5,495 nt of DNA, from the IMG/VR virus record IMGVR_UViG_638341087_000011. One strand, given 5' to 3'. Below, piece after piece: positions 1,285 to 2,355 of the stretch. Numbering within the stretch: the first letter of the stretch is position 1; every line of letters starts with the position of its first letter. The stretch is from a virus (Duplodnaviria > Heunggongvirae > Uroviricota > Caudoviricetes). A program made the position numbers and the translations under genes. The notes under the pieces are model-generated. The model was not told the DNA's origin, ran no database searches, and saw only the letters and a program-made list of their open reading frames with translations.

Positions 1285-2355
1285 ATGGCTAACGCTTGGC
1301 TCAGATTATGGCATGACATGCCAAATGACCCTAAGTGGCGAACAATTGCCAGGGTGTCAGGGCAGCCAATTGCAACAGTGATGGCAGTGTATATCCACCT
1401 CCTGGTGAGCGCGTCACGAAATGTCACGCGAGGTCACATTGATGTCACGACAGAAGATTTGGCAAGTGCGCTCGACGTGACAGAAGAGGTAATTGATTCA
1501 ATTTTGCAGACGATGCAGGGGCGGGTACTTGATGGTGATTTAATCACTGGATGGGAAAAACGCCAGGTGCTTAAAGAGGACAACGGCAATATTTCGCAAA
1601 CCGCAAAATCTCCTGCAGAGCGCAAGAGGGCGCAGCGAGAGAGGGAAAGAAAGCGGGAACAAAATGGCGATTGTCACGGCGCGTCACGAAATGTCACGCA
1701 CATGTCACGACAAGTCACGACAGATAAAGATACAGATAAAGATACAGATCAAGAAGATCAAAACACTATGGTCCATGGCGTAAAAAACGCCACGAACCAG
1801 GCAGGGGATGTTCAGACCGTCAATCTTGGTCAGCCAGCAGGCACGACACCGGAAGCCGATTCAGCGTATGCGCTGAAAGCCGATTCGGGCGCTGTGCAGC
1901 AGGTGATGACCGCAAGGCCGGAGCAATCACACCAACTGCAGCAGCCCGAAGCCGATTCCGCCATTCAGCGGGAAGCCGATCGGGTAGTCCCGGAAAACAC
2001 CGGGCAGTCTGTGGGACGAGTGGATTATCCGGATGTGTTCGAACAGGTCTGGCGGGAGTACCCGTTGCGTGCCGGAGCAAACCCGAAGAAATCCGCTTTC
2101 AGTGCCTGGAAGGCCAGATTACGCGAGGGGGTGTCACCAGAGGCCATGCTGGATGGCGTGAGGCGTTACGCAAGATACTTGGCGGCTACCGGGAAAACGG
2201 GAACGGAATTTGTTCAGCGAGCGACGACGTTTTTTGGACCGGACCGGAATTTTGAGAACCCCTGGTTGCTCCCGGTAAGCGGCACGAACAACCAGCGTTG
2301 TGTGAATCATATTTCTGAACCGGATACCGAAATTCCGCCGGGCTTCAGGGGGTAA
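1285..2355 (+). CDS. Phage replication initiator / replisome-organizer-like protein (lambda O analogue) with internal origin repeats
   Basis: ORF-track ORF 1279..2355 (GTG start); the ATG at 1285 sits 5-8 nt after a GAGG-containing RBS (agaagaggtgagt). N-terminus MANAWLRLWHDMPNDPKWRTIA resembles phage replisome-organizer N-domains. The central region is low-complexity and acidic/Q-rich, the C-terminal part is a conserved-looking globular domain. Iteron-like DNA repeats lie inside the gene. GC is high, around 55-60% in sampled lines. Confidence 0.78.
   Translation: MANAWLRLWHDMPNDPKWRTIARVSGQPIATVMAVYIHLLVSASRNVTRGHIDVTTEDLASALDVTEEVIDSILQTMQGRVLDGDLITGWEKRQVLKEDNGNISQTAKSPAERKRAQRERERKREQNGDCHGASRNVTHMSRQVTTDKDTDKDTDQEDQNTMVHGVKNATNQAGDVQTVNLGQPAGTTPEADSAYALKADSGAVQQVMTARPEQSHQLQQPEADSAIQREADRVVPENTGQSVGRVDYPDVFEQVWREYPLRAGANPKKSAFSAWKARLREGVSPEAMLDGVRRYARYLAATGKTGTEFVQRATTFFGPDRNFENPWLLPVSGTNNQRCVNHISEPDTEIPPGFRG
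1409..1481. repeat. Iteron cluster I: four direct GTCAC(G/A) copies in helical phase plus one inverted copy
   Basis: GTCACG at 1413-1418, 1423-1428 and 1444-1449, GTCACA at 1433-1438 (spacing 10, 10, 11 bp); inverted CGTGAC at 1476-1481. The 21-mer gcgcgtcacgaaatgtcacgc (1409-1429) is repeated exactly at 1679-1699. Confidence 0.7.
1673..1719. repeat. Iteron cluster II: five direct GTCACG copies in helical phase
   Basis: GTCACG at 1673-1678, 1683-1688, 1693-1698, 1704-1709 and 1714-1719 (spacing 10, 10, 11, 10 bp). Includes the exact 21-bp copy of cluster I at 1679-1699. Confidence 0.75.
1721..1756. repeat. Tandem 12-bp repeat (cagataaagata x2 plus a degenerate third copy), AT-rich, immediately after iteron cluster II
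   Basis: cagataaagata at 1721-1732 and 1733-1744, then cagatcaagaag at 1745-1756; encodes TDKDTDKDTDQED. The position after the iterons parallels the AT-rich element of the lambda-type origin. Confidence 0.65.
1852..1982. repeat. Four dispersed copies of (G/A)AAGCCGAT within the replication gene linker
   Basis: gaagccgattc 1852-1862, aaagccgattc 1876-1886, gaagccgattc 1948-1958, gaagccgatcg 1972-1982; these encode the repeated EADS/KADS/EADS/EADR peptides. Confidence 0.55.

Follow-up and report, generated by a model that had tools for sequence, protein, structure and literature searches.

A probable theta-type replication origin with two co-varying iteron arrays inside the initiator gene of a lambdoid Escherichia coli prophage

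The ori and crr sites of P4 are two separated clusters of short direct repeats, which serve one initiator and are both needed in cis. These clusters lie about 4.5 kb apart and not within the alpha gene, and a primase-helicase acts as the initiator. It is also well known that an origin can be embedded in an initiator gene. The ori-lambda contains four iterons and a 39-bp high-AT region within gene O (PMC6022878). The RepA protein of pSK41 follows a modular domain logic, and its winged helix binds Rep boxes inside its own gene (PMC5703833). G38P of SPP1 binds direct repeats in gene 38 (oriL) beside an AT-rich unwinding element, and there are also separate oriR repeats (PMC6316719). In our study, a stretch of 5495 bp from the IMG/VR record IMGVR_UViG_638341087_000011, hereafter called the window, was analysed. 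The window comes from a lambdoid E. coli prophage, of which it is the early-right region, and carries a replication initiator gene of 356 amino acids (aa) at 1285-2355 on the plus strand (phrog_3729). Judged from its sequence, the segment 1409-1799 inside this gene is probably the theta-type replication origin of the prophage. As origins embedded in initiator genes are already known, the locus is not a new kind of element.

The preliminary description of the window had proposed a probable origin embedded in the initiator gene and had suggested that the repeats be looked for, and their synonymous sites compared, in homologous genes; the proposal was supported by these computational checks. The reading as an origin is based on two phased arrays of repeats (A and B), the constraint on their synonymous sites, the co-variation of the arrays, the adjoining AT-rich tract, the inverted repeat and the modular inheritance of the region. 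It is also based on the presence of the sole such repeat cluster of a complete 46-kb phage which encodes no other replication protein, and on the DnaD-like winged helix of the initiator, the fold used by pSK41 RepA on the Rep boxes in its own gene.

The hexamer GTCACG was found nine times in the 5495-bp window, where 1.5 copies were expected, and all nine lay in 1413-1719 (307 bp); at least nine copies occurred in 0/200 dinucleotide-preserving shuffles. Array A (1413-1449, plus strand) contained direct cores at 1413, 1423, 1433 and 1444 with a spacing of 10/10/11 bp, the core at 1433 being a GTCACA variant, and it is translated into the end of helix 3 and a loop (aa 44-55). An inverted core of array A, with GTCACG on the minus strand, was present at 1476-1481. 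Array B (1672-1722, plus strand) lies about 230 bp downstream, in the region coding for the inter-domain linker, and contained exact cores at 1673, 1683, 1693, 1704 and 1714 with a spacing of 10/10/11/10 bp; Tandem Repeats Finder reported it as a 10-bp unit TGTCACGACA x5 at 1672-1722. An exact 21-bp repeat, GCGCGTCACGAAATGTCACGC, was found on the plus strand at 1409-1429 and 1679-1699, one copy per array, as had been described. The earlier count of four and five copies spaced by 10-11 bp was right for the spacing and for the five cores of array B, and four are reached in array A only by counting the GTCACA variant or the inverted copy. Similarly, the distance of 270 bp given for the two clusters holds for the offset of the 21-bp copies, and 260 bp separate the first core of array A from that of array B. 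The initiator gene showed 98-99% DNA identity to genes in the Escherichia phages Tritos, Evi and vB_EcoS-689R5. The complete genome of Tritos contained 25 GTCACG, about 21 being expected, and nine of the 25 lay within 302 bp of the initiator gene; in the rest of that genome the motif was at background level. No second GTCACG cluster was found in the complete 46-kb Tritos genome, and no helicase, loader or primase gene was found in the window or in Tritos.

Homologous genes were collected by a genome-wide search with the N-terminal 160 aa, using peptide patterns that excluded the repeat-encoded residues, and 28 loci were obtained. A scan of viral contigs by alignment had given only 100%-identical E. 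coli prophage copies, and the diversity came from genome contigs and from distant members used as seeds. The hosts of the 28 loci were E. albertii, Serratia, Rahnella, Pantoea, Erwinia, Enterobacter, Pseudomonas, Marinobacter, Bordetella, Acidovorax, Aquitalea, Chromobacterium, Sphingomonas and several metagenome-assembled genomes, so that the relatives span the gamma-, beta- and alpha-Proteobacteria. The homologues keep the repeats at the same gene positions across these distant hosts. In most loci, from E. albertii to Pseudomonas, Bordetella and Chromobacterium, GTCAC was present at nucleotides (nt) 129/139/149/160 of the gene, and the array B region near gene nt 380-450 contained 3-5 copies (3-6 across homologues). 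The start of array B varied between gene nt 377 and 446, and the distance between the arrays is not fixed. Most GTCAC-type homologues had the inverted core at gene nt 193, and two (L011 and L015) lacked it. The layout with two clusters, which had been called less usual, is instead the conserved norm among the homologues. Array A had two extra cores, and the loop was 7 aa longer, in the allele of E. albertii and in a second one from E. coli. The Pseudomonas phage phi1 of the genus Detrevirus also contained a homologue of the initiator gene (L275, 2501-3397), with GTCACG arrays at the positions of A and B; the GenBank record of this phage lists no coding sequence at 2511-3397, and its initiator is therefore unannotated.

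The constraint on the DNA itself was studied in 16 colinear genes of 55-75% protein identity from distant Proteobacteria of very different G+C content. Third codon positions were conserved at 0.99 in the four direct cores of array A vs 0.55 elsewhere (Mann-Whitney p about 8e-6), and at 0.99 vs 0.54 when only codons with a conserved amino acid were used (p about 6e-6), both p-values being optimistic because the compared sequences are phylogenetically related. Synonymous sites of the inverted core were less constrained (0.69-0.88). The comparison of synonymous sites proposed earlier thus came out in favour of the repeats.

The co-variation of the two arrays was examined in 162 non-identical genes, in which the dominant core was assigned independently for array A (gene nt 106-250) and array B (gene nt 321-560). 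The core pair was GTCAC/GTCAC in 128 genes, GAACG/GAACG (full core CGAACGC) in 21, GTAAC/GTAAC (GTAACG[C]) in eight and none/none in five, and a discordant pair was found in no gene. The co-variation of the repeat sequence between arrays across lineages, with no discordant gene among the 162, supports the reading as an origin. A fourth core, GCAACG(C), was present in both arrays of the Ralstonia phage Firinga (37% identity), and CGAACGC was present in both arrays of a metagenomic phage (47% identity). All core types share NNNACG(C). Across homologues, neighbouring cores were 10 or 11 bp apart in 92% of cases in array A and in 94% in array B, and each of the four core types retained the helical phasing. 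If one protein of lineage-specific specificity reads both arrays, these separated arrays are expected to switch in concert. Exact matches between arrays A and B within a genome reached up to 36 bp, often included the spacers and exceeded in length the matches between genomes that share a core type, which suggests occasional conversion between the arrays. In Pantoea osteomyelitidis (L018, gene nt 106-520), GTAACG and GTCAC/GTGAC were found mixed in both arrays and in both orientations; from its sequence this locus may be an intermediate or a dual-specificity origin.

These data also bear on the explanation that the repeats are functionless by-products, formed as peptide repeats, by slippage or gene conversion, or from microhomology at a recombination joint. 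The arrays do encode similar peptides (SRNVT...), a module joint lies directly after the tandem repeat, and the exact matches between A and B suggest conversion. When counted from the ATG at 1285, however, the cores occupied every reading frame (2,0,1,0 in array A and 1,2,0,2,0 in array B), and one peptide repeat cannot therefore explain the arrays; the peptide-repeat form of the explanation was ruled out by the reading frames together with the synonymous-site data. The near-invariant synonymous sites of the cores across divergent and compositionally different hosts, the co-variation of A and B and the helical phasing in all four core types also contradict a by-product origin, which we regard as extremely improbable.

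The presumed DNA-unwinding element is an AT-rich tract at 1720-1765 on the plus strand, which directly adjoins array B. The tandem 12-bp AT-rich repeat said to follow the second cluster was confirmed, since Tandem Repeats Finder gave a 12-bp unit ACAGATAAAGAT x2.9 at 1720-1754. The G+C fraction was 0.30 at 1720-1759 vs 0.55-0.65 in the remaining gene, and the lowest-GC 40-mer of the gene (25%) lay in the tract. GATC (Dam) sites were present at its downstream edge, at 1747-1750 and 1756-1759. In 103/157 homologues a tract of the type AGAT(A/T)N, typically (GATAAA)n or (GATACA)n, begins 3 nt past the 5-mer that marks the last core, and the (GATAAA)n/(GATACA)n tract accompanied each iteron type and was also seen in high-GC hosts. 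The tract motif was in another reading frame in a minority of genes, and part of its conservation is thus at the DNA level; an acidic/basic DKDK linker peptide may also be selected in the tract. The AT-rich 12-mers showed a loose resemblance to the oriC 13-mers or DnaA-trios. Directly 3' of the tract, an inverted repeat of 31 nt was found at 1769-1799, with a stem of 13 positions (G-T tolerant; 11 Watson-Crick) and a 5-nt loop. Across homologues, inverted repeats of unrelated sequence were enriched downstream of the tract, compared with control segments of the same genes.

The arrays might instead be operator or regulatory sites for the initiator or for another phage protein, with the origin elsewhere. 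Iteron-binding initiators often autoregulate, and a weak minus-strand promoter-like match at 1697-1670 overlaps array B. The matches of the promoter consensus scan were, however, within chance (4 found vs 2.8 expected), and, lying within the coding sequence at 130-430 nt, the sites are not placed at a promoter. The conserved tract and inverted repeat adjoining array B are features of an origin, and the complete phage has neither another repeat cluster nor another replication gene. Regulation with an origin elsewhere is therefore considered very unlikely.

The initiator probably starts at the ATG at 1285 and not at the GTG at 1279, as the homologues start with MAN(S/Q/A)W. It gave a full-length match to phrog_3729 'replication initiation protein' (E 8e-257), and the near-identical phage genes were annotated as 'DNA replication protein O', 'phage replisome organizer' or 'N-terminal phage replisome organiser'. 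The N-terminal domain (aa 1 to about 100; 1285-1584, plus strand), the presumed iteron-binding module, was found to have a DnaD-N-terminal-domain-like winged-helix fold. An AlphaFold2 model of aa 1-125 (predicted local distance difference test score 82) contained three helices and a loop at 46-55, followed by a helix-turn-helix (56-63, 67-77), a beta wing (78-87), a disordered stretch and a basic helix. A Foldseek search with this model gave no significant match. Residues 5-123 matched positions 1-119 of 121 of the Pfam profile Phage_rep_org_N (PF09681) at E 0.013, with 15.9 bits, below the gathering cut-off of 23.3. There was no match to the Pfam families Phage_rep_O and RepA_N (PF06970), the whole protein was without any Pfam hit at E<=0.01, and at E<=10 only Phage_rep_org_N and HTH_Crp_2 appeared, both weakly.

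The C-terminal domain (1885-2355, plus strand) matched phrog_1701 'DnaD-like helicase loader' and phrog_9327 'primosomal protein', and it is presumed to be the module that recruits the helicase or primosome. It ends in a DnaT-like tail (aa 332-356; nt 2278-2352, plus strand), NHISEPDTEIPPGFRG, which aligned with the C-terminus of solved DnaT chains (E 0.015). The NCBIfam DnaT model (NF002770) matched at E 0.0015 over DnaT residues 156-179 only, with 18.2 bits against a cut-off of 201, and the three-helix single-stranded-DNA-binding domain of DnaT (NF002770 / PF17948) was absent from the protein, the tail alone being matched. The tail sequence ...VNHISEPDTEIPPGFRG (window 2278-2352) matched the last 23-25 residues of the host DnaT. 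Copies of the last 63 nt of the gene, with 93-98% identity, stood at the ends of E. coli prophage genes that were unrelated in other respects and were annotated 'phage O protein family' or 'helix-turn-helix domain-containing protein'. To judge from these matches, the tail looks like a portable docking peptide.

The region is inherited as modules, and a mosaic joint was located at 1732-1760, where the N-terminal domain together with both arrays is exchanged as one unit against different C-terminal domains. Matches to E. coli genes covered either query positions 1-458 only or 448/476/593-1071 only, and they broke at query 448-476, within the tandem repeat. One allele (L001) contained the same N-terminus and arrays (83% identical), followed by a DnaT-type C-terminal domain and then by a lambda-P-like gene; this C-terminal domain was a true DnaT DNA-binding domain (Pfam DnaT E 8e-17, PDB E 7e-21). 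Another (L002) contained the C-terminal domain of the window type with an unrelated N-terminus without a GTCACG array, followed by dnaC. In the Ralstonia phage Firinga, a dnaB gene was next to the initiator. Elsewhere the N-terminal module was found beside a P-like, DnaC, DnaB or 609-aa 'P' gene (L001, L002, L273, L275). Since the N-terminus and the arrays travel together while the C-terminus is swapped, the former would be the specificity module and the latter the module coupling to the host or to the loader, a division also described for pSK41 RepA (PMC5703833), lambda O and SPP1 G38P.

In further sequences (L277 4001-4546, P0040, P0058, P0071, P0095 and P0118), the N-terminal domain and an intact array A were fused to an HNH nuclease, which replaces the linker and the C-terminal domain; in L277 a DUF1376/YdaU-like replication gene follows. 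Two others (L031 and L267) contained a GIY-YIG-like segment in place of the array B/linker region. Such fusions may be nucleases that take their targeting from the iteron-binding domain, whether to home into related origins or to attack these.

Within aa 1-95 of 105 distinct N-terminal domains, the GTCAC and GAACG types were separated only in the loop aa 45-55, when a consensus of at least 80% within each type was required. The separating residues were N46/A, T48/E and H51/R, and Arg49-Gly50 between them were invariant, though read from different core registers in different types. This loop is encoded by array A. That array A encodes the specificity loop of the very domain which reads the iterons, so that site and reader change together, is a speculative idea and in our opinion unlikely; the association of loop residues with core type may be a trivial consequence of the overlapping coding. 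If the loop did contact the variable 5' half of the core, a single conversion between A and B would alter the binding site and its reader together. New origin specificities could then arise by a built-in route, through which up to six co-resident prophage copies could escape cross-talk.

Several points weigh against the reading of the segment as an origin. The predicted 'recognition' helix of the winged-helix domain (aa 67-77) is acidic and shows no type specificity. The co-variation rests on about four independent core switches, and the p-values of the synonymous-site comparison carry the bias stated with them. DnaA boxes (TTWTNCACA, <=1 mismatch) were at chance level (14 vs 12.5 expected), with none in 1400-1490 or 1665-1800, and an input of the host DnaA is thus not supported. 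Recognisable arrays were also lacking in 5/162 homologues (L024, L029, L143, L031 and L267). Three of these (L024, L029 and L143) kept the (GATAAA)n tract, with up to nine units; their array A was unrecognisable, and at most 1-2 degenerate cores stood before the tract. In these three the origin recognition, if still operating, must differ.

The acidic, type-independent helix and the indirect evidence for a link between domain and cores leave room for another protein at the cores, such as a host factor or the YdaT-like or DUF977 neighbour. The core type, however, switches by lineage while the arrays stay linked to the N-terminal domain, in hosts from alpha- to gamma-Proteobacteria, and the arrays are absent where the N-terminus belongs to another family. 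The neighbouring genes, moreover, vary between loci (P-like, DnaC, DnaB or none). Binding by another protein is consequently held to be highly improbable.

If the segment is the origin, the N-terminal domain would bind each core and, at array B, assemble into a phased multimer along one helical face. The distortion produced there, aided by transcription from the upstream pR-like site, would melt the adjoining AT-rich tract, array B and the tract together being the predicted unwinding site. The exchangeable C-terminal domain, here with its DnaT-like tail, would then bring the host DnaB-DnaC or primosome machinery. Array A is taken as a second binding array for the same initiator protein, and its preferred role would be cooperative looping with array B into a larger initiation complex, like the ori/crr pair of P4. 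A role of array A in copy control or handcuffing is about equally compatible with the data as looping.

Array B and the AT-rich tract alone could make up the origin, with array A as a negative control element that acts by titration of the initiator, by handcuffing of sister origins or of co-resident ones, or by keeping the initiator gene from being transcribed or translated. An AT-rich tract is missing beside array A and one of its copies is inverted, the HNH-fusion gene kept array A and lost array B, and with up to six module copies per E. coli genome a control of cross-talk would be useful. The incA array of P1 is a plasmid precedent for auxiliary iteron arrays in copy control. Temperate phages in lytic growth, however, are not known to require a limit on copy number. 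Nothing tells a negative control from an enhancer at array A, and the variable A-B distance fits either. We regard negative control by array A as a possible but somewhat doubtful alternative to the looping role.

The window also contained the other genes of an early-right region. A cI-like gene ends near 470 on the minus strand and is followed by a P22-Cro-like gene (562-804), a YdaT-family gene in the cII position (788-1213) and the initiator gene. The 788-1213 gene matched Pfam YdaT 'toxin' (E 6e-10) and PHROG 'CII-like transcriptional activator' (E 4e-45), labels which imply different functions. A promoter-like site resembling pR was placed at 504-533 on the plus strand by the consensus scan only, upstream of the cro-like, ydaT-like and initiator genes, and transcription from this predicted site would cross the origin. 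In both the window and Tritos, a DUF977 / Ren-like gene (2396-2818 in the window) directly follows the initiator gene, and in the window two small open reading frames come next. A sce7726-family gene (3679-4257, plus strand; NCBIfam E 2e-57; PADLOC 'cll' E 2e-28) and a Beta_protein gene (4217-5314, minus strand; Pfam E 2e-51; PADLOC PD-Lambda-2_C E 7e-41) are convergent, and their 3' ends overlap by 41 nt. By these matches the pair looks like anti-phage defence cargo, located where lambdoid phages carry nin-region genes; Tritos contained another gene at this place.

The module of N-terminal domain and origin was found in 2099/5426 complete E. coli genomes, with up to six copies per genome, and the initiator gene was mostly annotated 'hypothetical protein'. 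A plasmid replicon was rejected, as only seven plasmid-database records matched and some of these were chromosome-sized. Many protein copies in the databases were 'partial', ending at 150-216 aa on short contigs (P0001-P0017). The repetition of the modules among co-resident prophages seems to make assemblies break at the mosaic joint, which would explain the assembly breaks at the initiator gene. In the searchable literature, with subscription-only works outside this scope, no paper on the initiator family or its origin was found, and a conserved duplicated array with one copy in the region coding for the DNA-binding domain, or four natural specificities, was not described. About the replication proteins of Stx phages nothing is known, according to the authors of the Eru typing (PMC8951638), and iterons or origins were not mentioned in two papers on the Eru replication region. 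The origin and its four specificity classes would allow the replication modules of prophages to be typed, extending the Eru typing, and would predict which co-resident prophages fire together on induction. With its 6-bp core, small domain and natural variants, the locus would be a simple system for studying the joint change of origin and initiator specificity. As the phage has no helicase loader gene, it is also a candidate for studying the recruitment of the host primosome by an initiator alone, via the DnaT-like tail.

Compared with the known systems, the locus shares single features with each of them. The two separated clusters of short direct repeats are like ori/crr of P4; unlike P4, both lie inside the initiator gene. 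The window protein and DnaT have the tail alone in common, in the last 23-25 residues of the former, and DnaT, unlike the window initiator, is without a sequence-specific origin-binding domain. With pSK41 Rep and the RepA_N plasmids, the locus shares an origin inside the initiator gene and a DnaD-like winged helix. It differs from them in the missing RepA_N match, in belonging to a phage of Gram-negative bacteria and not to a Firmicute plasmid, and in the duplicated array; the C-terminal domain of pSK41 Rep binds DnaG, whereas the C-terminus of the window protein has the DnaT-like tail. Like SPP1 G38P and the lactococcal replisome organizers, the initiator has repeats in its own gene, a second set of repeats and a weak Phage_rep_org_N match. 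The second site of SPP1, however, is a complete origin about 13 kb away, whereas that of the window is about 230 bp away, in the same gene and without an AT-rich tract, and SPP1, unlike the window phage, encodes its own loader and helicase.

The lambda-type architecture that had been suggested stands for the iterons followed by an AT-rich tract in the linker-coding part of the gene, but not for the protein, which is no lambda O homologue, nor for the type of iteron. The iterons of ori-lambda are 18-19 bp long and dyad-symmetric, whereas those of the window are direct cores of 6-7 bp with variable flanks and a spacing of 10-11 bp, which is one helical turn. Unlike ori-lambda, the window has a second array in the region coding for the DNA-binding domain, and no P-type loader gene follows. 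As in ori-lambda, the origin lies in the initiator gene, between the segments for a DNA-binding N-terminal domain and a recruiting C-terminal domain, and the initiator sites precede an AT-rich region of about 40 bp for unwinding. It is also located downstream of pR and of the genes in the cro and cII positions, and in both cases the N-terminus and the origin form an exchangeable specificity module.

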